A DNA stretch of 64,000 nucleotides from a plasmid (GCF_054482525.1 NZ_JBTHVG010000004.1), one strand, 5' to 3'; positions 3,935 through 40,731 are shown, counted from the first letter of the stretch. The notes: generated by a model not told the origin, from the letters alone. Numbers and translations are program-made.

Positions 3935-4537
3935 TTATTGCCCAGAAATATTCTCCTGCTGTGCCTGCATCCTGAGCCACTTTTGTTCTAATGTCGCCAG
4001 TCTGCGACCGGCACTCTGTGCTTCAGAGTCTGAGACCTGCCCTTTGGGGTGACCATCCAGGCCATAACGTGGGACGCCGGCGACAGCTGTCCGCTGCAGA
4101 TATACGCGGCGGGATGTGATGCAGGACACTGCACAGAGCCATTCGTCCATGGTCAGTTCTGTCTCCGGGTGTTCTGCCAGAAATGCCGAAATATCATTGT
4201 TTATGCCAATTTTCAGGGGAATAAATCCACCACCTTCAGCACGAAGATGAGGAAACAGGGCCTTTATTTTTTCCACGCACTCGTGAGTATACTCACGGGT
4301 CCAGTGGGAGGGACGTGGAAAACGGTGTCTTTTCTTTTTCTTCTTCCTGGCTGGCGCTTCGGGGATATGTGTTTCGACGGCAGATGAATTTATTCCGGCG
4401 GGGGCTGATTCTGCCGTCTGTTCAGTAAATACAGGTGCGATAATATCTGTTTTTTCGGATAAGGACGGTGGCGAAAAAGTACGACGTTTTTTCACCACAA
4501 TGACGGGAGTTTTCCTTTCTTCCTGATATTTTCCCAT
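3935..4537 (-). CDS. finO: FinO/ProQ-family RNA chaperone-like protein
   Basis: 200 aa; Lys/Arg-rich N-terminal half and C-terminal region resembling FinO fold (..EWLCAVSCITSRRVYLQRTAVAGVPRYGLDG..). Confidence 0.6.
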   Translation of the reverse strand: MGKYQEERKTPVIVVKKRRTFSPPSLSEKTDIIAPVFTEQTAESAPAGINSSAVETHIPEAPARKKKKKRHRFPRPSHWTREYTHECVEKIKALFPHLRAEGGGFIPLKIGINNDISAFLAEHPETELTMDEWLCAVSCITSRRVYLQRTAVAGVPRYGLDGHPKGQVSDSEAQSAGRRLATLEQKWLRMQAQQENISGQ

Positions 4538-4712
4538 AAATACCTCGGCTATGTTGTTCTACTTCCTTATAATATCATAGTTCAAAATTTAATAAACTTT
4601 CTGTTATGTAATATCCCTTGATAATTTACGAAGATGACTCTGTACCCTGCTATGTGAATCAGGAACGTTTATAGCAGGATACAACGGATTGTTACTTACA
4701 CAGTAAGATTTA

Positions 4713-5765
4713 CTAAGGTTTGTTTTCTTCTTTTCTTATATTTATCTGGTAATCCTTATCAACAATGCCTGCTCTACTGTTTGCATTAATCATTGCTGGT
4801 CTGATCCATATTAGTTTGTTATTTTTCCTGCGAATATGTCCTCTGCGTAAGTGCATCCTTTTCGTCCCACCGGATTTTCCTGTTCCAGTATGATTACTTT
4901 GCACCTTAGTTTCAGACAGTTGCAATACTTTATAAGTATATGAAGGGCGCTTGTTTTTTTCAGGTGGCTGAACTTTACGACCATTTATGAATTTTCTTTC
5001 TGGTTTAGTGCTAAGTGTGACAGGACACACATTTTCGCAATTTAACACGCTACATGCCTGTATGAAAGCCTGTAGTTCATCGCGAGTATCCATAATAATT
5101 TGCGCATATAATCTTTCAATACTTCCCACCTGCTTTATCAAATCATCTTTAAATTCCATGCTTGTTATAAAAGGCTCTGCTTTGAAGTGTGCTGCATTAT
5201 ATTTGGCTACTCCATTCTCTTTTAATGTGTCGATTACAAGCCTGGATGCAGGCAATGTCCTGTCAGGTTCGTATTTAGTGAGTTTGTTGTTATATGGGAA
5301 AAACATTCCACCGACACCAAGAATCCATATTTTTAAATCATCAGACCATGAAACAGGAAGGATAAACACTCCGCCATCAATATAAGTGTTAAGGATTGAA
5401 TTACATCCCGGGATGGGTTCAAAACTCTGTCTGGCCTCCCAGCACAGGGCAATTCTTCTGGATGATGGTGATATATTAAAATCACCTATTTGGGTTTCTA
5501 CATTGTCTTTGAACCATGGTATTTCAAATGTTACAACTGGATATGGTAATCGTGCCAAATCGAAATGCGTCTGGCGGTATTCTTCTGGTTCAATAATATC
5601 GCAGCAGTTCGGTAAGATGAACTTAACACTACTGTCCAGCATATCAATGACCTGACGCATAATATATGATGTAAGAGGTGCATTTGACCTTAATCCTTTT
5701 TCCATGACAGACAGGTCTTTTATGGCTTCCTTAGTGTAATTTAGTGGAGTAATTGTATCTTTCAT
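4713..5765 (-). CDS. Hypothetical protein, AT-rich cargo; C-terminal basic motif shared with 39354..40445 product
   Basis: 350 aa; AT-rich relative to flanks; C-terminal TGKSGGTKRMHLRRGHIRRKNNKLIWIRP. Confidence 0.6.
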   Translation of the reverse strand: MKDTITPLNYTKEAIKDLSVMEKGLRSNAPLTSYIMRQVIDMLDSSVKFILPNCCDIIEPEEYRQTHFDLARLPYPVVTFEIPWFKDNVETQIGDFNISPSSRRIALCWEARQSFEPIPGCNSILNTYIDGGVFILPVSWSDDLKIWILGVGGMFFPYNNKLTKYEPDRTLPASRLVIDTLKENGVAKYNAAHFKAEPFITSMEFKDDLIKQVGSIERLYAQIIMDTRDELQAFIQACSVLNCENVCPVTLSTKPERKFINGRKVQPPEKNKRPSYTYKVLQLSETKVQSNHTGTGKSGGTKRMHLRRGHIRRKNNKLIWIRPAMINANSRAGIVDKDYQINIRKEENKP

Positions 5766-5977
5766 TACGTTTTCTCTGGATATCTGATTACTATACAGGT
5801 ACGGCTACTTACGTAGCTCTGCCACCAGAAATACTCAGCCAGTAGGTTCCTGGCTACGGCAGAAGATGTGTGGATTTAGCTCGTACACAGGAGGCTGTTA
5901 CAGGTATCCACGATACCTGAACTGACGATTATTCTTGGAAATAATCAGCCATCCGCGCCGCTTTACTCAGGCCCCCT

Positions 5978-6568
5978 TTACGGGACGCTACTTTCATTTA
6001 TCTGTACGCGAACCTCTATTCCTGCGTCATGACAGGCCTGCAGCCACTGCGCCACTTCCAGCGGATCGCCCTCCAGGCGTACCACCCTGCCTTCTTTATT
6101 CCATAACTGCAGACAGGTGCTGCCGTCGAGACGCACCACAAAATCCCCACGGCAGGCCTGATACGTTATGCCGTTCAGCTCCACCGCCAGATCAGTGGCA
6201 GAAGTGCCGTCTGCGGGCAGACCTGCTGCCGGGACCAGCGGCAGTACGACGACTTCTGCCGCACGCTGTTCTGCCCGGAGGCGGTCCTGTTCTGCCAGCA
6301 GCAGAGGCTGTGCCACGGCCCGGCCGGCGTCCGTCAGCTCCACTGCCAGCTGCAGGTTCGGAGCGCGCAGGGTACGCAGCCAGCCGGCATCCTCCAGACG
6401 ACGGCAGGAGGCGCGCAGGTTTGGCCCGTAGACCGGGGCTTCCCCGCTTCGCTCCAGCACCCGTTCTATGTCCCGCGTCAGCACGGGTCCCGGCCGTTTT
6501 TCATCAAGGGCAGCCAGCACAATCAGCACTCTCCGCTGCAGTGGCGACGGTCGGCGGCTCTGAGTCAT
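5978..6568 (-). CDS. Hypothetical protein with putative N-terminal winged-helix DNA-binding domain (GC-rich gene)
   Basis: 196 aa; start overlaps stop of 6568..6822 ORF; high GC; opposite-strand 255 aa ORF is Pro/Arg/Ala-rich and judged spurious. Confidence 0.5.
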   Translation of the reverse strand: MTQSRRPSPLQRRVLIVLAALDEKRPGPVLTRDIERVLERSGEAPVYGPNLRASCRRLEDAGWLRTLRAPNLQLAVELTDAGRAVAQPLLLAEQDRLRAEQRAAEVVVLPLVPAAGLPADGTSATDLAVELNGITYQACRGDFVVRLDGSTCLQLWNKEGRVVRLEGDPLEVAQWLQACHDAGIEVRVQINESSVP

Positions 6569-15268: not shown

Positions 15269-15952
15269 ATGTCCCGTTTTGTCCTCGGTAACTGCATCGA
15301 TGTTATGGCCCGTATTCCTGATAACGCCATTGATTTCATCCTCACCGACCCTCCATATCTCGTCGGTTTCCGTGACCGTTCCGGGCGCACCATCGCCGGC
15401 GATAAAACCGATGAGTGGCTGCAACCGGCCTGTAATGAAATGTTCCGCGTGCTGAAAAAAGACGCGTTAATGGTGAGCTTCTACGGCTGGAACCGCGTCG
15501 ATCGCTTTATGGCCGCCTGGAAAAATGCGGGATTCAGCGTTGTTGGTCACCTGGTCTTCACCAAAAACTACACATCGAAGGCCGCATATGTGGGCTATCG
15601 CCACGAATGCGCCTACATCCTGGCAAAAGGCCGTCCACGTCTGCCACAAAAACCGCTGCCGGACGTGCTGGGCTGGAAATATTCAGGCAATCATCATCAC
15701 CCGACGGAAAAGCCTGTTACCAGCCTGCAACCGCTGATTGAGAGCTTCACACACCCGAACGCAATTGTGCTGGACCCGTTTGCAGGCAGCGGCTCAACCT
15801 GCGTTGCAGCCCTCCAGTCCGGACGCCGGTATATCGGTATCGAGCTGCTTGAGCAGTATCACCGTGCCGGACAGCAACGACTGGCTGCCGTACAACGGGC
15901 CATGCAGCAGGGGGCCGCGAATGATGACTGGTTTATGCCGGAGGCTGCGTAA
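15269..15952 (+). CDS. Orphan DNA N6-adenine/N4-cytosine methyltransferase
   Basis: 227 aa; catalytic DPPY motif (LTDPPYL) near N-terminus, FAGSGST SAM-binding motif near C-terminus; no adjacent restriction gene. Confidence 0.8.
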   Translation: MSRFVLGNCIDVMARIPDNAIDFILTDPPYLVGFRDRSGRTIAGDKTDEWLQPACNEMFRVLKKDALMVSFYGWNRVDRFMAAWKNAGFSVVGHLVFTKNYTSKAAYVGYRHECAYILAKGRPRLPQKPLPDVLGWKYSGNHHHPTEKPVTSLQPLIESFTHPNAIVLDPFAGSGSTCVAALQSGRRYIGIELLEQYHRAGQQRLAAVQRAMQQGAANDDWFMPEAA

Positions 15953-19711: not shown

Positions 19712-20239
19712 ATGAGTGCACGTGGTATCAACAAGGTCATCCTCGTCGGGCGTCTGGGCAATGATCCGGAAGTCCGTTACATCCCCAACGGGGGCGCAGT
19801 GGCAAACCTGCAGGTGGCCACATCAGAAAGCTGGCGTGACAAACAGACGGGGGAGATGCGGGAGCAGACGGAATGGCACCGCGTGGTGCTGTTCGGCAAG
19901 CTCGCGGAAGTGGCAGGTGAATATCTGCGCAAGGGTGCGCAGGTCTACATCGAAGGTCAGCTTCGCACCCGTAGCTGGGAAGATAACGGTATCACCCGTT
20001 ACGTCACTGAAATTCTTGTTAAGACCACGGGCACCGTGCAGATGCTGGGACGTGCACCACAGCAGAACGCTCAGGCGCAACCGAAGCCTCAGCAGAATGG
20101 GCAGTCACAGAGTGCTGACGCGACGAAAAAAGGTGGCGCGAAAACGAAAGGCCGTGGACGTAAGGCCGCGCAGCCAGAGCCTCAGCCGCAACCGCCGGAG
20201 GGGGAGGATTACGGGTTTTCAGACGACATCCCGTTCTGA
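19712..20239 (+). CDS. ssb: Single-stranded DNA-binding protein
   Basis: 175 aa; OB-fold N-terminus, Gln/Pro-rich linker, acidic tail ending DDIPF. Confidence 0.9.
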
Positions 20240-20582: not shown

Positions 20583-22547
20583 ATGATTATGCCTGTAACG
20601 AAGTGTGAACCAGAAACCACCCGCAAAGCAAGCCGTAAATATGTAAAAACGCAGGAAACTGCACTGTCTGCCCTGCTGGCGCAGACGGAGGAAGTGAGCG
20701 TGTCGCTGGCCTCACTGATTAAGTCACCGCTGAATGTGCGCACGGTGCCGTATTCTGCGGAGTCCGTCAGCGAACTGGCTGAGTCCATTAGGGGCGTTGG
20801 CCTGCTGCAGAATTTGGTCGTGCATACCCTGCCTGGTGACCGTTACGGTGTCGCCGCAGGTGGTCGCCGACTGGCTGCACTCAACATGCTGGCAGAGCGT
20901 GGCATCCTTACGGCTGACTGGCCTGTACGCGTGAAAATTATTCCGCAGGAGCTGGCGACTGCCGCATCAATGACTGAAAACGGTCATCGTCGGGATATGC
21001 ACCCTGCCGAACAGATTGCCGGATTCCGTGCAATGGCGCAGGAAGGCAAAACGCCTGCACAAATCGGTGATTTGCTGGGCTATTCGCCCCGCCATGTCCA
21101 GCGAATGCTGAAACTGGCTGACCTTGCGCCTGTCATCCTCGATGCGCTGGCAGAAGACCGCATCACCACAGAGCACTGTCAGGCGCTGGCGCTGGAGAAC
21201 GACACCGCGCGTCAGGTGCAGGTGTTTGAAGCCGCCTGCCAGTCGGGATGGGGCGGTAAACCGGAAGTACAGACCATTCGTCGTCTGGTGACCGAAAGTG
21301 AAGTGGCGGTGGCGGGGAACAGTAAATTCCGCTTCGTGGGGGCTGATGCCTTCTCGCCAGACGAACTGCGCACCGATTTGTTCAGCGACGACGAGGGTGG
21401 CTATGTGGACTGCGTGGCGCTCGATGCCGCCCTGCTGGAAAAACTCCAGGCTGTCGCAGAGTTCCTTCGGGAAGCCGAAGGCTGGGAATGGTGCGCCGGA
21501 CGCATGGAGCCTGTCGGTGAGTGCCGTGAGGATGCCGGAACATACCGCTGTCTGCCGGAGCCGGAAGCGGTGCTGACGGAGGCAGAAGAAGAACACCTGA
21601 ACGAACTGATGACGCGTTACGACGCGCTGGAAAACCAGTGTGAGGAATCCGACCTGCTGGAAGCAGAAATGAAGCTGATTGACTGCATGGCGAAGGTCAG
21701 GGCGTGGACGCCGGAGATGCGTGCCGGAAGTGGCGTGGTGGTGTCCTGGCGTTATGGCAACGTATGTGTCCAGCGTGGTGTGCAGTTGCGCAGTGAAGAT
21801 GACGCGACTGACGACGCTGACCGCACGGAACAGGTGCAGGAGAAAGCGTCAGTGGAGGAAATCAGCCTGCCGTTGCTGACGAAAATGTCCTCAGAGCGCA
21901 CGCTGGCAGTCCAGGCGGCACTCATGCAGCAGCCGGACAAATCTCTGGCACTGCTGGCATGGACGCTCTGCCTGAATGTGTTTGGCAGCGGGGCGTACAG
22001 TAAACCAGCACAAATCAGCCTGGAATGTGAACATTACTCGCTGACCAGCGATGCGCCATCGGGGAAGGAAGGTGCCGCATTCATGGCGCTGATGGCAGAA
22101 AAAGCCCGTCTTGCTGCCCTGTTACCGGAGGGATGGTCACGGGACATGACGACATTCCTGTCACTCAGTCAGGAGGTGCTGTTATCCCTGCTCAGCTTCT
22201 GCACTGCGTGCAGCATCCACGGTGTTCAGACCCGTGAGTATGGTCACACGTCACGCAGTCCGCTGGACTCGCTGGAAACCGCTATCGGCTTTCACATGCG
22301 CGACTGGTGGCAGCCGACAAAAGCAAACTTCTTCGGACACCTGAAAAAGCCGCAGATTATCGCAGCCCTGAATGAGGCAGGACTGTCCGGTGCCGCACGG
22401 GACGCGGAGAAGATGAAGAAAGGCGATGCCGCTGAACATGCAGAGTTCCATATGAAAGACAACCGCTGGGTGCCTGGCTGGATGTGTTCACCACGTCCAC
22501 AGACGGATGCCACTGAACGCGCCGATAACCTGGCTGATGCCGCCTGA
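20583..22547 (+). CDS. ParB/Srx N-terminal domain (ParB-like nuclease) protein of the leading region
   Basis: 654 aa; ParB-like N-terminal domain, HTH-like segment. Confidence 0.65.
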   Translation: MIMPVTKCEPETTRKASRKYVKTQETALSALLAQTEEVSVSLASLIKSPLNVRTVPYSAESVSELAESIRGVGLLQNLVVHTLPGDRYGVAAGGRRLAALNMLAERGILTADWPVRVKIIPQELATAASMTENGHRRDMHPAEQIAGFRAMAQEGKTPAQIGDLLGYSPRHVQRMLKLADLAPVILDALAEDRITTEHCQALALENDTARQVQVFEAACQSGWGGKPEVQTIRRLVTESEVAVAGNSKFRFVGADAFSPDELRTDLFSDDEGGYVDCVALDAALLEKLQAVAEFLREAEGWEWCAGRMEPVGECREDAGTYRCLPEPEAVLTEAEEEHLNELMTRYDALENQCEESDLLEAEMKLIDCMAKVRAWTPEMRAGSGVVVSWRYGNVCVQRGVQLRSEDDATDDADRTEQVQEKASVEEISLPLLTKMSSERTLAVQAALMQQPDKSLALLAWTLCLNVFGSGAYSKPAQISLECEHYSLTSDAPSGKEGAAFMALMAEKARLAALLPEGWSRDMTTFLSLSQEVLLSLLSFCTACSIHGVQTREYGHTSRSPLDSLETAIGFHMRDWWQPTKANFFGHLKKPQIIAALNEAGLSGAARDAEKMKKGDAAEHAEFHMKDNRWVPGWMCSPRPQTDATERADNLADAA

Positions 22548-22598: not shown

Positions 22599-23036
22599 AT
22601 GATGAATACCGAACTGACACTGAATGCCCTGCAGTCCATGAATGCCCAGGAATATGAAGAAATCCGTGCTGCGGGAAGCGATATGCGCCGTAATCTCACT
22701 CACGAGGTGATGCGTGAAGTGGACGCACCAGCTAACTGGATGATGAACGGAGAGTATGGCAGCGAGTTCGGGGGCTTTTTCCCCGTCCAGGTTCGTTTCA
22801 CGCCAGCCCACGAACGTTTCCACCTGGCATTATGTTCGCCGGGAGACGTCTCTCAGCTCTGGATGCTGGTTCTGGTGAATGGTGGTGGACAGCCTTTCGC
22901 CGTCGTTCAGGTGCAACATATCTTCACGCCTGTCGCGATCAGTCACACGCTGGCGCTTGCCGCGACACTGGATGCGCAGGGATACAGTGTTAACGACATC
23001 ATCCATATCCTGATGGCAGAAGGAGGTCAGGCATGA
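22599..23036 (+). CDS. psiB: Plasmid SOS inhibition protein PsiB
   Basis: 145 aa; near-colinear similarity to F PsiB as recalled (..[13 protein letters not shown].., ..[35 protein letters not shown]..). Confidence 0.9.
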
Positions 23037-23752
23037 GCGCACGTTCACGGGCACTGATCCCCCTCAGCGCAGAACAACAGGCCGCCATGCAGGCGGTGGC
23101 TGTCACAGAACAACGTCGTCGTCAGGGACGCACACTTTCAGCATGGCCTTATGCCACCGCTTTCTTTCGCTGCCTGAATGGCAGTCGCCGGATTTCGCTG
23201 ACCGATCTCCGCTTTTTTGCCCCTGCGCTGACGAAGGAGGAATTTCATGGCAACCGTCTCCTGTGGCTGGCTGCCGTGGATAAACTGATTGAAAGTTTTG
23301 GGGAAGTCTGTGTTCTTCCCCTGCCATCCGATGCGGGGCACCGTCTGTTCCCGTCCGTGCCTTTTCGTGAAGGTGAGCGTCGTCGTCAGAAAACCACGCT
23401 GACAGAGCAGAAATACAGCCGCCAGCGGGAACGTGAGGCAGAACGACGGGAACTGGAATACCAGACATGTTTTGCTCAGGCGCAGATTGACCTTGCGTTT
23501 CATACTCCCGCCACGGTCGGAAGCTGGTTGTCCCGCTGGTCTGGTGTTGTTGAGGAGCATGATCTGGAAACGATTTTCTGGGGGTGGTGCGGGCGTTTTC
23601 CGTCACTGTCATCATTTGACCGGTTTTTCTGGCAGGAGGAACCACTCTGGCGGCTGATTTTTGAAGCCGGTGAGGCCGGTCGTGGTGCACCGATACAGGT
23701 ACGTGCACTTGAGCAGTGGATGATCCCGAACAAGCTGGAGAACGTAATATGA
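23033..23752 (+). CDS. psiA: PsiA
   Basis: 239 aa; overlaps psiB stop. Confidence 0.75.
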
Positions 23753-26829: not shown

Positions 26830-26893
26830 TTAACCCTTGCCGTCTGCCTGTGCAGGCGGCAGGATACGTTCAGACATCTCACCAGGAGGAACC

Positions 26894-27784
26894 GTGAGTA
26901 AGAAGAAAACCACCACGACGCCCACGCCGCATGATGCCGCGTTCCGGTCGTTCCTGGCGAATCCCGACGTCGCCAGAGATTTTCTGGAACTGCATCTTCC
27001 GGCGGAGTACCGGCAGTTGTGCGACCTGTCCACGCTGAAGCTGGAACCCGCCACCTTTGTTGAGCCGGACCTGCATCAGTACGCCAGCGATATCCTCTGG
27101 AGTGTGAAAACCACCGGGGGTGAAGACGGCTATGTTTATACGCTCATCGAGCACCAGAGCACCGAAAATCTGTACATGCCTTTCCGCATGTTACGTTACA
27201 GTGTGGCGGCGATGCAGAGACATCTGGAGCAGCACAAAACGTTGCCACTGGTGATTCCTGTGCTGTTCTATCATGGTGAGCGCAGCCCGTACCCGTACAG
27301 CATGAACTGGCTGGACTGTTTTGAGAATCCGGCACTTGCGGCTAAAATATACACAAAGCCGTTTCCGCTGGTTGATATCACTGTCGTTGATGACAATGAA
27401 ATCATGAACCATCGCCGGATGGCCGCACTGACGCTGCTGATGAAGCATATCCGCCATCGTGACATGATGGATCTGCTGGACAAACTCCCGCAGGTCATGG
27501 TGGAAATTTCAGACGAGCAGGTGCGTGTTCTGATTCATTACATCGTTAACGCAGGGGACTCTGTATCACCGGAATTTATGCGGGCGCTGGCTGAGCGTCT
27601 GCCGCAGCATGAGGATAAACTGATGACTATCGCAGAACGTCTTGAGCAAAAAGGTCGCCAGGAAGGAGCGCTTGAAAAAGCCCTGGCTATTGCGTGCCAG
27701 CTTCAGAAAATGGGGATGACGCCGGAGCAGATTAAGCAGGCTACCGGACTTTCCGAAGCTGAACTGAAAAAAATCATTCACTGA
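26894..27784 (+). CDS. Rpn-family (YhgA-like, PD-(D/E)XK Transposase_31) recombination-promoting nuclease
   Basis: GTG start after SD aggagg; N-terminal ..HDAAFRSFL.. and ..YTLIEHQS.. motifs typical of Rpn/YhgA proteins. Confidence 0.7.
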   Translation: MSKKKTTTTPTPHDAAFRSFLANPDVARDFLELHLPAEYRQLCDLSTLKLEPATFVEPDLHQYASDILWSVKTTGGEDGYVYTLIEHQSTENLYMPFRMLRYSVAAMQRHLEQHKTLPLVIPVLFYHGERSPYPYSMNWLDCFENPALAAKIYTKPFPLVDITVVDDNEIMNHRRMAALTLLMKHIRHRDMMDLLDKLPQVMVEISDEQVRVLIHYIVNAGDSVSPEFMRALAERLPQHEDKLMTIAERLEQKGRQEGALEKALAIACQLQKMGMTPEQIKQATGLSEAELKKIIH

Positions 27785-30749: not shown

Positions 30750-33452
30750 GTGAATGCAGTCATTCCGAAAAAGAGAAGGGACGGCAAGTCTTCGTTCGAA
30801 GACCTGGTATCCTACGTCTCTGTCCGGGATGACATGACCGATGAGGAACTGGATTTATCTTCTTCTTCGCAGGCTGAACAACCGCACCGAAGCCGTTTCA
30901 GTCGCCTTGTTGATTATGCGACACGTCTTCGAAATGAGTCATTCGTGGCGCTGGTTGATGTCATGAAGGACGGCTGCGAATGGGTCAACTTTTATGGTGT
31001 CACCTGCTTTCATAACTGTACTTCTCTTGAAACTGCCGCTGCAGATATGGAGTACATTGCCCGGCAGGCACACTATGCAAAAGATGACACTGATCCTGTT
31101 TTTCACTACATCCTTTCCTGGCAGTCACATGAAAGCCCGCGTCCGGAACAGATTTATGACAGTGTACGTCATACGCTGAAATCACTCGGCCTTGCCGACC
31201 ATCAGTATGTCTCTGCCGTGCATACTGATACAGATAATCTGCACGTCCATGTGGCTGTTAACCGGGTACACCCTGAAACGGGTTATCTGAACCGGTTATC
31301 ATGGAGTCAGGAAAAACTCAGTCGTGCCTGCCGTGAGCTTGAACTGAAGCATGGTTTTGCTCCGGATAACGGTTGCTGGGTCCATGCGCCGGGAAATCGT
31401 ATCGTTCGCAAAACTGCCGTTGAACGTGATCGCCAGAACGCTTGGACACGCGGAAAAAAACAAACTTTTCGCGAGTATGTTGCGCAGACAGCGGTCGCTG
31501 GTTTACGCAGTGAACCTGTACATGACTGGTTATCCCTGCATCGTCGTCTTGCTGAAGATGGTTTGTACCTGTCTCAGATGGACGGAAAATTTCTGGTGAT
31601 GGATGGCTGGGATCGCAACAGGGAAGGTGTACAGCTTGACTCGTTTGGTCCCTCCTGGTGTGCAGAAAAACTCATGAAAAAAATGGGTGACTACACGCCA
31701 GTGCCAAAAGACATTTTCAGCCAGGTGGAAGCACCAGGACGCTATAATCCGGACTTCATTGCAGCTGATGTTCGCCCGGAAAAAATCGCTGAAACAGAAA
31801 GTCTGCAGCAGTATGCCTGTCGTCATCTTGGAGAACGTCTGCCGGAAATGGCACGGGAAGGACGGCTGGAAAACTGCCAGGCTATTCACCGCACACTGGC
31901 TGAAGCGGGATTATGGATGCGTGTTCAGCATGGTCACCTGGTTATCTGTGACGGTTATGATCATAACCAGACTCCCGTTCGTGCTGACAGCGTATGGTCA
32001 CTGCTGACGCTCGACAATGTGAATCAACTCGATGGTGGCTGGCAGCCTGTACCAACAGATATTTTCCGCCAGGTTACGCCAACAGAACGCTTCCGTGGTC
32101 GTCGTATGGAGAGCTGTCCTGCGACCGATAAAGAATGGCACCGTATGCGTACAGGTACGGGGCCGCAGGGGGCTATCAAACGCGAACTGTTTTCTGACAA
32201 AGAAAGTCTGTGGGGATACAGCATCAGCCATTGTAGCCCTCAGATTGAAGAAATGATCACACAGGGTGAGTTTACCTGGCAGCGTTGTCATGAGTTGTTT
32301 GCACAACAGGGACTGATGCTACAGAAACAACATCACGGGCTTGTTGTCGTTGATGCCTTTAATCATGAGCAAACGCCGGTGAAGGCCAGCAGCATTCATC
32401 CTGATCTGACTCTGGGGCGTGCAGAGCCACAGGCCGGACCTTTTGTGAGTGCCCCAGCAGATTTGTTTGACAGGGTGCAACCTGAAAGTCGCTATAACCC
32501 GGAGCTGGCTGTCAGTGACAGGTACGGGGTCAGCAGTAAACGTGACCCAATGCTGCGCCGGCAGCGACGTGAAGCCAGAGCTGAGGCCCGTGCTGACCTG
32601 CGTGCCCGCTATCTGGCATGGCGTGAACAATGGCGTAAACCAGATCTGCGTTATGGGGAACGTTGTCGGGAAATTCATCAGGCATGCCGTCTGCGGAAGT
32701 CACACATTCGTGCGCAGTACGATGATCCGGCATTACGTAAGCTGCATTATCACATTGCAGAAGTTCAGCGAATGCAGGCATTGATCAGGCTGAAAGAAGA
32801 CATCAGGGATGAGCGGCAGAAACTTATTGCTGACGGGAAGTGGTATCCACCCTCTTACCGTCAGTGGGTCGAAATTCAGGCTGCTCAGGGAGACAGGGCT
32901 GCTGTATCGCAGCTGAGAGGCTGGGATTATCGCGATCGCCGTAAAGATAAGTCACGCACAACGACAACAGACCGCTGTGTCGTGCTTTGTGAACCGGGCG
33001 GAACGCCGGTATACGGTAATACCGGTGATCTCGAGGCCCGTTTGCAGAAGAACGGGAGTGTTCGTTTCCGTGACCGTCGGACGGGAGAGTTTGTCTGTAC
33101 GGATTATGGTGACAGGGTTGTTTTCCGTAATCACCATGACCGCAATGCGCTGGCAGATAAACTGGATTTGATTGCACCGGTATTATTCGGGCGTGATCCA
33201 CGCATGGGTTTTGAACCAGAAGGAAACGACAAACAATTTAACCAGGTCTTTGCTGAAATGGTTGCCTGGCATAATGTGACAGGCCGTACCGGTCACGAAG
33301 ACTACAGGATTACGCGACCGGACGTGGATCATCACCGTGAAGGAAGTGAACGCTACTACCGCGATTATATCGCGGCGAACAGCAACGATGACGCATCACT
33401 GCCTCCGCCGGAGCAGGATAAACTCTGGGAACCGCCTTCTCCGATGAGATGA
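30750..33452 (+). CDS. nikB: Relaxase NikB
   Basis: 900 aa; follows nikA; N-terminal relaxase region with conserved His cluster (HTDTDNLHVHVAVNRV). Confidence 0.9.
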   Translation: MNAVIPKKRRDGKSSFEDLVSYVSVRDDMTDEELDLSSSSQAEQPHRSRFSRLVDYATRLRNESFVALVDVMKDGCEWVNFYGVTCFHNCTSLETAAADMEYIARQAHYAKDDTDPVFHYILSWQSHESPRPEQIYDSVRHTLKSLGLADHQYVSAVHTDTDNLHVHVAVNRVHPETGYLNRLSWSQEKLSRACRELELKHGFAPDNGCWVHAPGNRIVRKTAVERDRQNAWTRGKKQTFREYVAQTAVAGLRSEPVHDWLSLHRRLAEDGLYLSQMDGKFLVMDGWDRNREGVQLDSFGPSWCAEKLMKKMGDYTPVPKDIFSQVEAPGRYNPDFIAADVRPEKIAETESLQQYACRHLGERLPEMAREGRLENCQAIHRTLAEAGLWMRVQHGHLVICDGYDHNQTPVRADSVWSLLTLDNVNQLDGGWQPVPTDIFRQVTPTERFRGRRMESCPATDKEWHRMRTGTGPQGAIKRELFSDKESLWGYSISHCSPQIEEMITQGEFTWQRCHELFAQQGLMLQKQHHGLVVVDAFNHEQTPVKASSIHPDLTLGRAEPQAGPFVSAPADLFDRVQPESRYNPELAVSDRYGVSSKRDPMLRRQRREARAEARADLRARYLAWREQWRKPDLRYGERCREIHQACRLRKSHIRAQYDDPALRKLHYHIAEVQRMQALIRLKEDIRDERQKLIADGKWYPPSYRQWVEIQAAQGDRAAVSQLRGWDYRDRRKDKSRTTTTDRCVVLCEPGGTPVYGNTGDLEARLQKNGSVRFRDRRTGEFVCTDYGDRVVFRNHHDRNALADKLDLIAPVLFGRDPRMGFEPEGNDKQFNQVFAEMVAWHNVTGRTGHEDYRITRPDVDHHREGSERYYRDYIAANSNDDASLPPPEQDKLWEPPSPMR

Positions 33453-33574
33453 CAGATGAAGCTTTATTAGTTTCGTTATAGAATGAAAAAATCACCAATA
33501 TTAAATATGGGTGTGGTGGTAAAAATAAATATGTTAGGCAATGTTAAGTAACTCTATTGACGGAATCATGTTTT

Positions 33575-34393
33575 ATGAGCACTAATCTTGCTTTTCGTTA
33601 TGCAAGTGTTGAAACTTTTTTTAAAATGATTGAAAACCAAGAATTATGGTTTACCGATCTTCGGAATATGAATGATCCGGAAGAATACTCGGCTGGCTAT
33701 GAAATAGTCAAGAGAATAATAAATGAGGAATTTCCAGATTGCATTAGACTATTAGAAGAAGTATCACCTAATAAGATAGACGAAAATTTTAAGATATTAA
33801 TTTGTTGTTTCTGTTCTGATGGAGATCGTTCCAACATGTGGAGCGAGTATGGTGATAATGGCAAAGGCGTTGCTATTGGTTATGATAAGAATATTATAAC
33901 CCAAAATCATATTTTGGCTCGGTTTGAAGAACATTTTCAACCTATTAGTGGTAGAGTTGTCTTTCATCCTGTTATCTATTCAGAAGAACTGTTTCGAGAA
34001 TATGTAAGAAACGCATTGCATGATTATATTAATCGCTCAAGTTTAAATATTAAATATGCACGTGGCATACTTCATGCACATCTTATCAGACTATGTTCAT
34101 TATATAAGAGAGAGAGTTTTGAATGTGAAAATGAGGTCCGAGGACTTATTGAAGTAGATGAACGTACATTCCCACCATACAAACTTGAAAAACGTAGTAC
34201 TGATTACGGAATTGCGTATTATACTAAGGTGAAATTTACCTGTAACAATATTACGGCAATTAGAGAGATTGTGTTGGGGCCTTTATTTGAACAATCTGAT
34301 GAACAGCTTCGGTCAAAATTAGATGATCTAGGGTTAAAGAATATAAAAATTAGACGTTCCATATGTACCTACAATGATGTGGTTAATCTGTAA
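33575..34393 (+). CDS. DUF2971-like protein (uncharacterised; AT-rich insertion between nikB and trbC)
   Basis: N-terminal W-F-T-D-x4-N-D-P-E-E motif as I recall for DUF2971; ATG at 33575 chosen (track ORF starts at TTG). Confidence 0.55.
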   Translation: MSTNLAFRYASVETFFKMIENQELWFTDLRNMNDPEEYSAGYEIVKRIINEEFPDCIRLLEEVSPNKIDENFKILICCFCSDGDRSNMWSEYGDNGKGVAIGYDKNIITQNHILARFEEHFQPISGRVVFHPVIYSEELFREYVRNALHDYINRSSLNIKYARGILHAHLIRLCSLYKRESFECENEVRGLIEVDERTFPPYKLEKRSTDYGIAYYTKVKFTCNNITAIREIVLGPLFEQSDEQLRSKLDDLGLKNIKIRRSICTYNDVVNL

Positions 34394-34397
34394 TCTG

Positions 34398-34426
34398 AAT
34401 GCTGGTATCTAGTACCAGCATTTTTA
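34398..34426 (+). terminator. Rho-independent terminator-like hairpin after DUF2971-like gene
   Basis: palindrome gctggta..taccagc followed by ttttt. Confidence 0.5.
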
Positions 34427-34465
34427 AATAGGTTTTTTGCGGGAAGACCAAAGTATGGTCACAGT

Positions 34466-36757
34466 TCAGTACATTCCGTCCCAGTCCGGACGGTTGTTTT
34501 TTTTATGATGAAACCCGTTTACAGGACGCCCTGTCGGGTGGTTATTGTCCTGTGGAAGCGTTAACAGGTTTATACCGGCTCTTTCTGCTCTCACTGATAT
34601 CTGATTTTCCTCATTTGTTTCAGGTAGTTCTGGTCTGTTCAGTGTGATATAGCGAATTCGTCGCTCTTCCCGGGTGGTCGTTTTAAGCGTATTCACCGCT
34701 GTTTCCCATAAGGCACTTTCACGTGCGTTGATATCCGTGTCGTACTCTTCCAGCATTGCCATAGCCGCCTGACGTCCTGCAATGCGTTGCTGGAATGTAT
34801 CCACGATCGTGTGCGGCTCTGTGCGAATTTTTCGTCTTTTTCTGGAGGGTTTTGCAGTCAGGACGCCAATGATGGCACTGACATTTTCCGGTGACGGTAT
34901 TCGACGTTGAGTAGTACGGGGAACAAGACGGCGGAGACGGTCCAGGCGTGGCGCATCCACGCTGATATACCTGTTTATAACAACGGGATCGCTGCTGCAG
35001 CTTTTCTCATCGTCAGGGATGAAGAATGATGCTGATGGTACGGTTTCTCCCCGGAAAATAGAAAAGAACTCGCCAGGATGAAGTTCAATCAACTCCTGAA
35101 CATTTATCTTGCTTTCCATCAGGATGCTGATTTGTGGGCTGTCAATCCATGATTCACCAAATATGCCGTCCTGACGCTGCAGGTTGTTCATCCTCGCCCT
35201 GGCTTCTTCACCGGCGGCGCTTTTCAGCGTTCTGGCCGTACTACCCTCGCTGACAATCCTGCCGGCAAATTTTGTCCCCGTGTTCTGCATCAGTGTTGCA
35301 GTATTCGTGGCTGTTGTCTGTCCTTCTATACGTTCCTGGTCCTGTGCCATCAAAATCAGAGCAAAATCCAGTGAACGCACCTGAGTGGCTTCCACAGCAA
35401 TACGGTCCGTATAGTATGCCCCCACTTCATCAAGGAAACACAGATAAGGGAAACGCCCCTTATATTTTTTGACTTCCAGTGCATCGGAATCAGTTCCTTC
35501 GAGGCGGTAGCCCAAATCACGGGCGAGAATCATACTTTTCTGGGTGATAAACATTCGTCCAAGAGCAGACGTTGTATGCGCTGATGTATCCAGAGCGGGG
35601 ATCATTACCATCAGAATCCTGTCGCTGTGAATGCTGTCACGGATATCGATATCACCGGAATCTTCAGCAAAAATATCCCCGAATGCTTCCGTGAATGTGC
35701 TGAAAGTTTCAGAAAACTGCCCGGAGAGATAAGCATGTTGTTTTCTGGGTTCTTCCGTCCAGGCTGATGGTGTCCTGACCAGCGACAGGTCGAAACCGGG
35801 AACGTCCTGAAGGTAGTTACGTAACGGTGCGATAGCTTCTTCCGGCCACTGATCATCGAGGCCACGACAGTAAAGTTTGGCCATCCCTTCGAGAGTCATA
35901 TGTTCACGGAGCATCTGCAGCGACATTGTTTTGCCTTCGCGCACACACCAGAATTTAGTACCAAATACCAGTGCCTTATTCATGGCAATGGCCCGGGACT
36001 GCCACTCGCCCCCCTGGACGTTCTGGGGCAGCATTGACTGCATTGTCTCCGCTGTGAATGCCTCAGTGCTGTAACAGAAGGGATTCCAGGTATTTGACTG
36101 AGGACGCGTTTTTTCACCACTCAGAATGATTTCACTGCGGGATTTTCCTCCGTTCATGAAGTTAATGACTTCCACATCGTCTTCACGTCCAAAGCGTCTG
36201 GCCAGATACCAGATCGTTCTTGCCGTATCATTCTGTGCCTTGCCATCGACAAGGGTGAATCCTCTTGCCCAGCAAAGTGGGTTAATCGCCCAGGCAAAGA
36301 TGGTTTCCGTTTTACCGCCACCGGTGGTGGCGAAAAACATTATATGGCGGGTCAGATCGTCCATACTCAGCCATAACTCCCTGCCAATATCCCTGACGCG
36401 TTGATAACCAACATAGAATATGCCGCTGGCCGGTGATTCCAGAATGACCTCATACTGGAACAGGGTTGGCCAGAAGCTGAAAAGACTTCTTTTAATCATT
36501 CTGTCCTGTGACGGGTCAGCACATTCCAGCGTCATGGGCATACGAAGAGGGCAGCGCCATCGCTGCAGACTAAATACCAGCATTGTTATCAGTGTGAACA
36601 ACAGACATGCCGGTAATGCAAGTGGCCAGATAAAACTGGCCACAAGACTTGCCACCAGGCAAAAGCCATAGATATTGAGACTCTGGAGTGCATTCCAGAC
36701 AGGATTTCCCCAGGCTGTACGGTGTAAAAGCTCGGGGTTAACGCGATGTTCACTCAT
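34466..36757 (-). CDS. trbC: TrbC (DotL/IcmO-like type IV coupling protein)
   Basis: 763 aa; N-terminal TM segments; Walker A FFATTGGGKTE. Confidence 0.85.
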   Translation of the reverse strand: MSEHRVNPELLHRTAWGNPVWNALQSLNIYGFCLVASLVASFIWPLALPACLLFTLITMLVFSLQRWRCPLRMPMTLECADPSQDRMIKRSLFSFWPTLFQYEVILESPASGIFYVGYQRVRDIGRELWLSMDDLTRHIMFFATTGGGKTETIFAWAINPLCWARGFTLVDGKAQNDTARTIWYLARRFGREDDVEVINFMNGGKSRSEIILSGEKTRPQSNTWNPFCYSTEAFTAETMQSMLPQNVQGGEWQSRAIAMNKALVFGTKFWCVREGKTMSLQMLREHMTLEGMAKLYCRGLDDQWPEEAIAPLRNYLQDVPGFDLSLVRTPSAWTEEPRKQHAYLSGQFSETFSTFTEAFGDIFAEDSGDIDIRDSIHSDRILMVMIPALDTSAHTTSALGRMFITQKSMILARDLGYRLEGTDSDALEVKKYKGRFPYLCFLDEVGAYYTDRIAVEATQVRSLDFALILMAQDQERIEGQTTATNTATLMQNTGTKFAGRIVSEGSTARTLKSAAGEEARARMNNLQRQDGIFGESWIDSPQISILMESKINVQELIELHPGEFFSIFRGETVPSASFFIPDDEKSCSSDPVVINRYISVDAPRLDRLRRLVPRTTQRRIPSPENVSAIIGVLTAKPSRKRRKIRTEPHTIVDTFQQRIAGRQAAMAMLEEYDTDINARESALWETAVNTLKTTTREERRIRYITLNRPELPETNEENQISVRAERAGINLLTLPQDNNHPTGRPVNGFHHKKNNRPDWDGMY

Positions 36758-39310: not shown

Positions 39311-39353
39311 ATTTAGATATGTGTACATCCTACCGGAAAAGATACTTTTCAGG

Positions 39354-40445
39354 TCATTTATCAATGGGTGTTATTACCACCGGTAGTTTGTTTACGTCTT
39401 CTAAATTAACTGGTACCGGAGGTAACCATATTAATCTAGGTTTACGCTCATGGGCTAGTTCTGGTTTCTTACTTCCTGTCCAGTATGTATGCCAGTGTCC
39501 CCGGCGTATATGAGGACGTTTGCTACCTATTGTTGTCCGCTCTTTCCCTGTGGGTTCTGCTTGGCGATATTGCCGTATGGCTTGCCCCATTCGAATACCA
39601 ACGTCCCACTCCCGAATGTTTTGTGCTGGTAGTTCATGGTGAGTGTGAACATGCTTTTTGTGCTTTTCTGACCGTTTAAATTGATTTTTTTCTTTTATAT
39701 CATTGATCTGTGAACAGATATAAAGCACCATTGATATCTGTGCGTTAAGAAGATTAAACTCCCTGTCTCTGAAATCTTTGAGCTTTTCGTTAACTGTTAC
39801 GACGACTTCACCATCGATACACTCCATCTTTCTGGAGTCAAGAAGTCCTTCACGAGAGTCCTTTATTCTGATGATATTATTGACGACGTCAACATCCTTT
39901 TCTTTTAGCCCTGTAGTTCCTTGACTTTGTTTCAGATCATCAATAATGAAAAGCCGGATAATATTTCCATTATTGTCCAAAAATGGATAAAAGAAAAATC
40001 CATGTATCGGATAGGACGTAGGAAGTATAGTATGCAGATTTTCGGCTGAAACATAGATACTCCATGAAGGGAGTTCCTTGAGGATCTGTGCAGGAATGTT
40101 ATCAACATAGGTGTTAGCCACATCACTGATGATGTCCTCGCTTAGGCGATAAATTTTCTTTGTATAGCGCCAGTATATAAAACACAAAATACTGTGTGGT
40201 GACGATAATTCGTTTCCATGAAATAAAGATTCTAGTTTAGAAGCCAGTTCTTCATTTTTTTGTTGGCTCTGGAGACGACTCATTAGTATGCGTTCTTCAT
40301 CTTTTCTGTCGATAAATAATAATGGATTGTCGCTGCGTTTTTTATTTCGGCATGCAAAGATTTGCTCTTCAAGCCCAGGGATTGTGTTGATGACTTTTTT
40401 TATCTTTTTCAGGAAAATAGGTTGTTTTAACTGCGACATTTCCAT
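39354..40445 (-). CDS. Hypothetical protein, AT-rich cargo; C-terminal motif shared with 4713..5765 product
   Basis: 363 aa; SD aggagatggaaATG; C-terminal TGKERTTIGSKRPHIRRGHWHTYW...RLIWLPPVPVN. Confidence 0.6.
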   Translation of the reverse strand: MEMSQLKQPIFLKKIKKVINTIPGLEEQIFACRNKKRSDNPLLFIDRKDEERILMSRLQSQQKNEELASKLESLFHGNELSSPHSILCFIYWRYTKKIYRLSEDIISDVANTYVDNIPAQILKELPSWSIYVSAENLHTILPTSYPIHGFFFYPFLDNNGNIIRLFIIDDLKQSQGTTGLKEKDVDVVNNIIRIKDSREGLLDSRKMECIDGEVVVTVNEKLKDFRDREFNLLNAQISMVLYICSQINDIKEKNQFKRSEKHKKHVHTHHELPAQNIREWDVGIRMGQAIRQYRQAEPTGKERTTIGSKRPHIRRGHWHTYWTGSKKPELAHERKPRLIWLPPVPVNLEDVNKLPVVITPIDK

Positions 40446-40561
40446 CTCCTAAGGGGATTCTTTTATTAACTAAAATCAGCATAACATGCGTTGTTGTGAA
40501 GTAGAGAACCATGTATTGGGTTGGTTGTTAACTTCAAAAACAACGCTGAATCATTCAAATA

Positions 40562-40731
40562 ATAAAAGGATTGTTACAGATACGAAAGTCGTTAGAATAG
40601 CTGCGGGCGCTTGAGGCTGTATGCCGAAAGCGTTTTGTGGACGGTATACAGCAGAAAGCCCCTGGAGATTTTTTTATCAATCAACCAAGGGCTCTACTGT
40701 AATGCCTCAACAACATTATAGTAGCCCGATA
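40562..40731 (+). repeat. pnd leader copy 2 (functional copy upstream of pndA)
   Basis: direct repeat of 39141-39310. Confidence 0.6.
40570..40640 (-). ncRNA. pndB: Putative PndB (Sok-like) antisense RNA region
   Basis: inferred only from hok/sok organisation (antisense to leader around the mok start); no promoter mapped. Confidence 0.25.

Follow-up and report, generated by a model that had tools for sequence, protein, structure and literature searches.

A single-gene, AT-rich cassette between nikB and trbC of IncI1-type plasmids encodes a DUF2971 protein and is a candidate phage-defence module

A compositionally foreign cassette in the transfer region

Between the convergent transfer genes nikB (plus strand) and trbC (minus strand) of an IncI1-type plasmid (GCF_054482525.1, NZ_JBTHVG010000004.1) lies a cassette of about 1 kb carrying a single gene, which encodes a protein of the DUF2971 family. 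We analyzed it within a 64,000-nucleotide stretch of that plasmid, referred to here as the window, in which positions 33453-34465 make up the whole gap between the two flanking genes; features are listed in Table 1. A previous reading of the sequence alone had described this gap as strongly AT-rich compared with both flanks, and this holds: its guanine-plus-cytosine (GC) content is 0.333 (0.335 in the coding sequence, with a third-position GC3 of 0.242), against 0.519 for nikB, 0.499 for trbC, and a window mean of 0.511 (standard deviation, 0.06), and it ranks lowest in GC of 1260 sliding 1013-bp windows across the 64 kb. The identities proposed for the flanking genes, those of a relaxase and a coupling protein, were borne out by NCBIfam models for NikB (NF041893) and TrbC (NF041447), with names that agree with the RefSeq annotation of near-identical plasmids. 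The IncI1 TrbC has been equated with the DotL/IcmO-type coupling protein (PMC6112013), and in Pfam it yields only a weak TraG-D_C match (E=0.0036). Besides the one long open reading frame (ORF), the cassette holds only short spurious antisense ORFs.

The presence of the cassette is polymorphic among related plasmids. A 2-kb query spanning the site matched 1604 PLSDB plasmids, just 54 of them over its full length; in the others, the two flanks are joined. Searching with the cassette alone returned 55 PLSDB records, all 55 typed conjugative, and nikB is annotated under or beside the match in nearly all of them. The empty junction, represented by a 351-bp probe, had a full match in 1342 records, which puts occupancy at about 4% of intact IncI1-type junctions (55 versus 1342). 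By this comparison of plasmids with and without it, the gene is not conserved backbone, in keeping with the sequence-only reading. Cassette-bearing plasmids come from Escherichia, Salmonella, Shigella, and Klebsiella; among complete E. coli genomes the cassette is found in 52 of 5426, only on plasmids and never on the chromosome.

Alignment with the empty-site plasmid NZ_CP074036 (L001) shows that left homology ends after 33442 and that right homology returns at about 34457-34464, with a cassette of about 1015 bp taking the place of about 36 bp at the common IncI1 empty junction, AGGTTAAAAAAAAGGCCGCGCCAGAATCCGGCGCGGCC. The notion of an insertion between nikB and trbC thus stands as a real presence/absence polymorphism but not as a simple insertion, as the roughly 36 bp replaced are those of the trbC terminator. 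We found no terminal inverted repeats, flanking direct repeats, or target-site duplication around the cassette, no recombinase among its ORFs, and no Rfam match within it. With no flanking repeats, no recombinase ORF, and a replacement of about 36 bp without duplication, a transposon, insertion sequence (IS), or integron cassette was rejected as its identity. The cassette is accessory, compositionally foreign, and single-gene.

Two "partial" junction matches that we inspected for other cargo, NZ_KP119165 and NZ_CP120564, were uninformative on that point, being IncF plasmids with short IncI remnants. In both (NZ_KP119165.1 and NZ_CP120564.1), about 150 to 200 bp of the IncI1 nikB 3' or trbC 3' end lies away from transfer genes, a relic of past IncI-IncF recombination. 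Separately, the DUF2971 gene is occasionally inactivated in nature: among NZ_JBSWBG010000003.1, NZ_JBSWBI010000003.1, NZ_CP024230.1, and NZ_CP051282.1, two records have an IS1A element inside it, and in the remaining two the gene is either split or both truncated and unannotated.

A DUF2971 protein with a predicted ADP-ribosyltransferase fold

The single 272-amino-acid protein expected from the sequence is encoded as described, from an ATG start; initiation at an in-frame TTG further upstream would lengthen it to 278 amino acids. Its assignment to DUF2971 was confirmed by Pfam (PF11185, E=1.3e-9), which matches residues 88-189 to model positions 1-88 of 89, as it likewise matches 67 of 68 aligned homologs. 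The W-F-x-D-x4-N-D-P-E-E motif on which that assignment had been based is also present as stated and is a DUF2971 hallmark, D34 and E37 being invariant (68/68) even though they lie outside the Pfam model. All five PADLOC models for PDC-S31, a single-gene phage-defence candidate, match the protein (E of 1.2e-11 to 7.7e-5), two of these hidden Markov models (HMMs) covering most of its length. PHROGs places it in family 1762, function unknown (E=7e-27), and NCBIfam gave no match. The identical gene is labeled "DUF2971 domain-containing protein" in RefSeq (WP_000106196), and the identical UniProt entry is A0A620R736. A phmmer search of 1.84 billion representative proteins returned 3765 clusters at E<=1e-3, and most of the best homologs are 260 to 280 amino acids long and align over residues ~4-266. 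Judged from these alignments, the true unit of the family is the entire chain; the Pfam model spans only its middle third. In AFDB50, more than 2000 DUF2971 models resemble ours with TM scores of 0.7 to 0.95.

An alignment of 68 full-length homologs (A2; 22 to 47% identity) defines the conserved positions. Y9, D34, E37, W89, Y92, G98, K178, E185, E187, R189, and G235 are invariant, and W25, N33, D84, G102, Y135, P236, L249, and S262 are nearly so. In full, the N-terminal motif reads L-W25-F-T-D-L-R-N-M-N33-D34-P-E-E37, with W25 kept in 63 of the 68 sequences and N33 in 67. Motif I, on the first strand, has arginine in place of histidine in our protein and its close enterobacterial relatives (6/68 sequences). 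Arginine is the residue used at this position by ADP-ribosyltransferases (ARTs) of the R-S-E class.

The AlphaFold2 model, built with the homolog alignment, is of very high confidence, with a mean predicted local distance difference test (pLDDT) score of 94.7 and a predicted TM score (pTM) of 0.90. Its nearest solved folds are ART-type enzymes that modify nucleic acids, either single-stranded DNA (ssDNA) or RNA, including DarT and Tpt1/KptA-like enzymes, and further ADP-ribosylating toxins (7dn9, TreX, TreTu, scabin, CARDS, and ArtA) are among the structure matches. Conserved residues stand at the places of the ART motifs: [Y/F]-[H/R]-Y on the first strand (residues 5-10), W-x-x-Y following the third strand, and E-x-E-x-R where the strand of residues 187-195 begins. 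Alignment and model secondary structure together show the three-motif ART pattern (H/R on beta1; Y or S-x-S at beta2/3; E or ExE before beta5), and the modeled E-x-E-x-R at a strand start resembles ART catalytic loops. Weak matches to AbiGi occur in 2 of the 68 homologs (E~4e-3). A survey of ART-like families noted a conserved Y and ExE in DUF2971 and placed it beside DarT, AbiGi, and Tox-ART-HYD1 (PMC12522546), and a Lactococcus plasmidome study independently assigned DUF2971 to the ARTs (PMC11381338). An ART fold is likely for the modeled protein.

A constant N-terminal region and a hypervariable second half

Seven alleles from IncI1 plasmids (the window and L005 to L010) differ by at most 58 nucleotides in the DUF2971 gene, with identity down to 92.9% at the nucleotide level and 87% at the protein level, while the 2 kb of nikB and trbC adjoining the cassette are 98 to 99.5% identical. 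Synonymous divergence is alike in gene and flanks (dS up to 0.11 in the DUF2971 gene; pS up to 0.09 in nikB), whereas in nonsynonymous divergence the gene exceeds the flanks roughly tenfold (0.02 to 0.076, versus 0.0005 to 0.008). The resulting dN/dS (pN/pS) is 0.6 to 1.3 for the DUF2971 gene, up to 4 in close pairs, and 0.03 to 0.24 for nikB and trbC.

The substitutions are sharply partitioned along the protein (Table 1). The first 214 nucleotides are the same in all seven alleles (P=6e-8 for no variable residue in the first 71), whereas residues 105-176 and 195-234 pooled are variable at 38 of 112 positions. The 19 columns conserved across the family are free of variation (hypergeometric P=0.02), and the 272-codon frame is kept in all seven alleles. 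This is the pattern that would be expected of a working enzyme core with a fast-changing surface, as in many immune sensors.

Terminators and probable expression

The sequence-only reading had given the gene a clean terminator of its own, and folding agrees: a hairpin at 34398-34422, five bases past the stop codon, has a perfect 10-bp stem and a 5-nucleotide loop followed by U5 on the plus strand, with an energy of -15.8 kcal/mol versus -6.0 +/- 2.4 for shuffled sequences (z = -4.2). A simple terminator scanner missed it. On the minus strand, the trbC side, this hairpin has no U-run. At the empty site (L001 1944-1990), a GC-rich hairpin carries U8 on the trbC strand, so that it is essentially the trbC terminator, and cassette-bearing plasmids lose it. 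Because the U-run of the new hairpin is on the plus strand only, transcription of trbABC may run antisense into the DUF2971 gene (34398-34470 region).

A sigma-70 scan of the plus strand found no promoter-like site upstream of 33575; overall, the scan gave 6 sites versus 4.9 expected, which is chance level, an antisense promoter-like site at 34246-34218 among them. No terminator was found after nikB with the cassette present. Since the gene is preceded neither by a sigma-70-like site nor by a terminator after nikB, transcription continuing from nikAB would most simply supply its message, and we infer that expression is probably low.

Defence context and a proposed mechanism

The nearest homologs outside IncI1 lie among defence genes in the three neighborhoods that could be read, the contigs of the other homologs being too short. 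Beside mutS, in an integrase-flanked island, an E. coli homolog (P0006, 49% identical) directly follows Hachiman HamA/HamB, a second (P0007, 45% identical) lies between a 1298-amino-acid SIR2_2 protein and an AAA_13/SMC_N protein, and a third (P0011, 39% identical) adjoins a 1348-amino-acid TIR_2/PIN-TPR protein. Phage records, by comparison, gave 2 weak family matches in 50,697, one of them in a Streptococcus satellite phage, and this near absence fits defence by a host or mobile element better than counter-defence by phages. One DUF2971 protein has a demonstrated phenotype: Aristaios, a 316-amino-acid single-gene system on a Lactococcus plasmid, protects from lactococcal phages in a manner that its authors read as abortive infection (PMC11381338).

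As a separate observation on the P0006 locus (GCA_028850805.1, L003 7387-7995), the homolog there lies 6 bp downstream of an unannotated 202-amino-acid ORF. The pair may represent a two-gene form of the system; in the IncI1 cassette, a corresponding second ORF is lacking.

On evidence that is indirect throughout, we put the probability that the cassette is a single-gene phage-defence module at roughly 0.55. We read the segment as accessory DNA that a minority of IncI1-type plasmids gained by horizontal transfer, and the full-length DUF2971 protein would act as a single-protein antiphage module of the abortive-infection type. Residues 105-234, the second helical insert and the beta-hairpins, which evolve fast, would sense an infection cue or impose autoinhibition, and the enzyme would be held inactive until the cue acts on this variable region. 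Once active, its conserved core would bind NAD+ through R8/Y9 of the first strand and the W89/Y92 motif, with E185/E187 carrying out ADP-ribosyl transfer either to an essential protein or, as the analogy to DarT and Tpt1 suggests, to a nucleic acid, and phage replication would be halted at the cost of the cell. The transcript would be supplied by low-level nikAB read-through and would end at the gene's own terminator. Catalysis and its dependence on NAD+, the molecule modified, the infection cue, the antiphage effect, and the way the gene is expressed are all inferred in this scheme.

Several results weigh against this proposal. The structure-match scores are modest: none reaches 8, and from rank 5 on the list is mixed with unrelated proteins. 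Foldseek found nothing significant in the PDB, and a PDB search with the 68-sequence profile found no solved relative, its chance match being IpaD (E=0.88). With modest scores and no Foldseek or profile match, we rate the ART fold as likely, not as proven by our own tests. Recombination of diverged alleles or partly relaxed constraint could give a pattern of variation similar to that described above, and positive selection is not demonstrated, as the extreme pair of alleles has 16 nonsynonymous substitutions to 1 synonymous (binomial P about 0.12 versus the neutral ratio).

Alternative explanations

The cassette could instead be a decaying passenger that was acquired, is silent (for example, as AT-rich DNA repressed by H-NS), and drifts neutrally. 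An overall dN/dS near 1, a GC content of 33%, the lack of a recognizable promoter, the occasional copies broken by IS1 or frameshifts, and an occurrence in only about 4% of IncI1 plasmids would all suit such a history. We nevertheless consider it unlikely, as a full reading frame of 272 codons is intact in all seven divergent alleles, which differ at up to 58 nucleotides, substitutions avoid residues 1-104 and all 19 conserved columns, unlike in neutral decay, and the cassette persists in plasmids of four genera.

A role linked to conjugation itself has a smaller chance of being correct. Here an ART-like enzyme could modify ssDNA entering or leaving the cell, that of its own plasmid or of rivals, in plasmid competition or exclusion or could be exported into recipients by the IncI1 type IVB secretion system, an idea consistent with a gene wedged between the relaxase and a DotL-like coupling protein, with plausible nikAB co-transcription given no terminator after nikB, and with nearest solved folds that belong to ssDNA- and RNA-modifying enzymes. 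For a DUF2971 protein of Legionella, whose Dot/Icm system is homologous, computation has predicted an effector role (PMC12522546), but the effector status of this protein, lpg1268, is a prediction only, and our literature search gave just the predicting paper. About 96% of IncI1 junctions have no such gene, and the plasmids concerned are typed conjugative, so that it is unneeded for transfer; the nearest homologs, moreover, are chromosomal and in defence islands, with no type IV secretion system nearby. The site may also be a mere permissive intergenic spot. In the related IncM plasmid pCTX-M3, an unrelated accessory gene, orf46, encoding a ROS/MucR regulator, lies downstream of trbC (PMC6112013), and with a different gene there the position seems tolerant of cargo.

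The sequence-only reading had named the transfer core as a typical place for defence or anti-defence cargo. The first of these roles receives indirect support from the PDC-S31 matches, the islands that hold homologs, and Aristaios; the second, in which an ART would inactivate recipient immunity and so aid plasmid establishment, we regard as improbable, given the side of the origin of transfer (oriT) on which the gene lies and the context of its homologs. Phages do use ARTs to modify host proteins, which counts in its favor. However, the genes of the leading region lie across oriT (a methyltransferase gene at 15269-15952, ssb at 19712-20239, a ParB-like gene at 20583-22547, and psiA at 23033-23752), and the DUF2971 gene sits opposite them, on the nikB side. 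The polarity of IncI1/R64 transfer is established, and the gene should thus enter the recipient late, which speaks against an early-acting anti-defence role. Its homologs are found among defence genes and not in phage or leading-region anti-defence clusters, and the family is nearly absent from phages.

A slimmer prospect again is a more specific arrangement in which an antitoxin-free DarT-like nucleic-acid ART is coupled to type IVB conjugation and co-transcribed with the relaxase, since the cassette deleted the intergenic terminator. Such an enzyme might mark ssDNA as it is transferred and thereby exclude rival plasmids or ssDNA intermediates of phages, or it might be delivered to recipients by the DotL-like coupling protein in an echo of the predicted Legionella Dot/Icm DUF2971 effectors. 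Through its hypervariable surface it would keep pace with its targets in an arms race. Least likely of all is a post-segregational killing toxin, the DarT-like half of a toxin-antitoxin pair that stabilizes the plasmid, for although the structure resembles DarT toxins, the cassette holds no second gene, macrodomain, or other antitoxin candidate and no Rfam RNA, PADLOC classes the PDC-S31 family as single-gene, and close homologs mostly stand alone.

Relation to known systems and significance

The defence module that we favor would resemble Aristaios (pUCCL641_199; PMC11381338), likewise a plasmid-borne single DUF2971 gene with no partner. The two differ in length (272 versus 316 amino acids) and in the phylum of their hosts, and the antiphage phenotype is shown for Aristaios alone. 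At E<=1e-3, tblastn with the cassette protein gave no match to a Lactococcus plasmid, nor did it with a Firmicutes-like 316-amino-acid relative, and the profile search of proteins listed no Lactococcus protein. These results suggest that the relationship to Aristaios, compared here by description, is at best distant. PDC-S31 has the same single-gene architecture, and all five of its HMMs match; their moderate scores make the cassette protein a divergent member. PDC-S31 is itself a candidate defined by genomic association, and our literature search found no published validation of it.

DarT, the ssDNA thymidine ADP-ribosyltransferase toxin of DarTG, is 8 to 9% identical in sequence, and Foldseek does not pick up the structural likeness; the cassette lacks the DarG macrodomain antitoxin, and its protein has two large helical inserts that are absent from DarT. 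DarTG was rejected as the identity of the locus, with no Pfam DarT/DUF4433 match and nikB and trbC as sole neighbors. The RNA 2'-phosphotransferase Tpt1/KptA has no sequence similarity to the protein, a different set of motifs, and a housekeeping role in tRNA splicing. AbiGi (PF10899), of lactococcal abortive infection, is a reported sequence neighbor of DUF2971 among ART-like families (PMC12522546); the cassette protein itself has no AbiGi match, and AbiGi pairs with AbiGii.

The protein was already represented in RefSeq, UniProt, and PADLOC, and for its family a fold had been predicted and one antiphage member validated. The cassette departs in nothing from what is expected of the DUF2971 family and is in this respect a fairly ordinary find; the new points, though modest, are its fixed IncI1 location, the replacement of the trbC terminator, and the sharp partition of variation among its alleles. 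A major share in the carriage of extended-spectrum beta-lactamase (ESBL) and AmpC resistance genes falls to IncI1 plasmids, in both human and livestock E. coli and Salmonella. If the gene serves in defence, it does so on about 4% of these plasmids and could affect their retention by hosts and the effects of phage therapy or predation on their spread. The allele series, with its constant N-terminal half and hypervariable residues 105-234, amounts to a natural mutagenesis set for what a DUF2971 enzyme senses, in a very large uncharacterized defence-associated family of thousands of clusters and one validated member.

Flanking genes and other features of the window

TABLE 1 Positions of the cassette, its flanking genes, and the motifs and variable parts of the DUF2971 protein
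Feature	Positions	Strand	Basis or result
AT-rich cassette	33443..34456	.	Alignment with empty-site plasmid NZ_CP074036 (L001)
nikB, 900-amino-acid MOBP relaxase (TraI/MobA(P) family)	30750..33452	+	NCBIfam NF041893
Noncoding leader, 122 bp, nikB stop to DUF2971 start	33453..33574	+	Sequence; promoter, terminator, and Rfam scans
DUF2971 protein, 272 amino acids, predicted ART fold	33575..34393	+	ATG start, stop codon included
Motif I, F7-R8-Y9, strand beta1; family consensus Y-H-Y, Y9 invariant	33593..33601	+	Alignment A2, model secondary structure
N-terminal motif, W25...N33-D34-P-E-E37; D34 and E37 invariant (68/68)	33647..33685	+	Alignment A2
Motif II, W89-S-E-Y92; W89 and Y92 invariant	33839..33850	+	Alignment A2
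Motif III, E185-N-E187-V-R189 (E-x-E-x-R, all three invariant), beta-strand start	34127..34141	+	Alignment A2, model
Hypervariable part, residues 105-234 (second helical insert, beta-hairpins)	33887..34276	+	41/49 variable residues, seven alleles
Variable positions, residues 1-104			1/104
Variable positions, residues 105-176			23/72
Variable positions, residues 177-194			3/18
Variable positions, residues 195-234			15/40
Variable positions, residues 235-272			7/38
Intrinsic terminator of the DUF2971 gene, hairpin and U-run	34398..34427	+	Folding
trbC, 763 amino acids, DotL/IcmO-like coupling protein	34466..36757	-	NCBIfam NF041447

With the cassette present, NikB ends in ...PPSPMR*, compared with ...PPSPG* at the empty site (33440-33452), and a linked substitution near the cassette changes K-R-W to K-L-W (around 33421-33429). 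In one cassette-bearing plasmid (NZ_CP027327.1, L009), trbC at 4020-6302 has no coding sequence annotation and shows frameshift-like divergence, with pN ~ pS at 0.33 to 0.38, which suggests a pseudogenized coupling protein.

The other lowest-GC stretches of the window, at 4400-5800 and 39350-40700 (GC about 0.37), hold ORFs of 350 amino acids (4713-5765, minus strand) and, beside trbA, 363 amino acids (39354-40445, minus strand). Neither has an NCBIfam or PADLOC match, and they are possible additional cargo genes. At 26837-27784, in the interval from the leading region to oriT, lies a homolog of the Rpn-family recombination-promoting nucleases/putative transposases, with RpnA below its cutoff and a match to NCBIfam TIGR01784.
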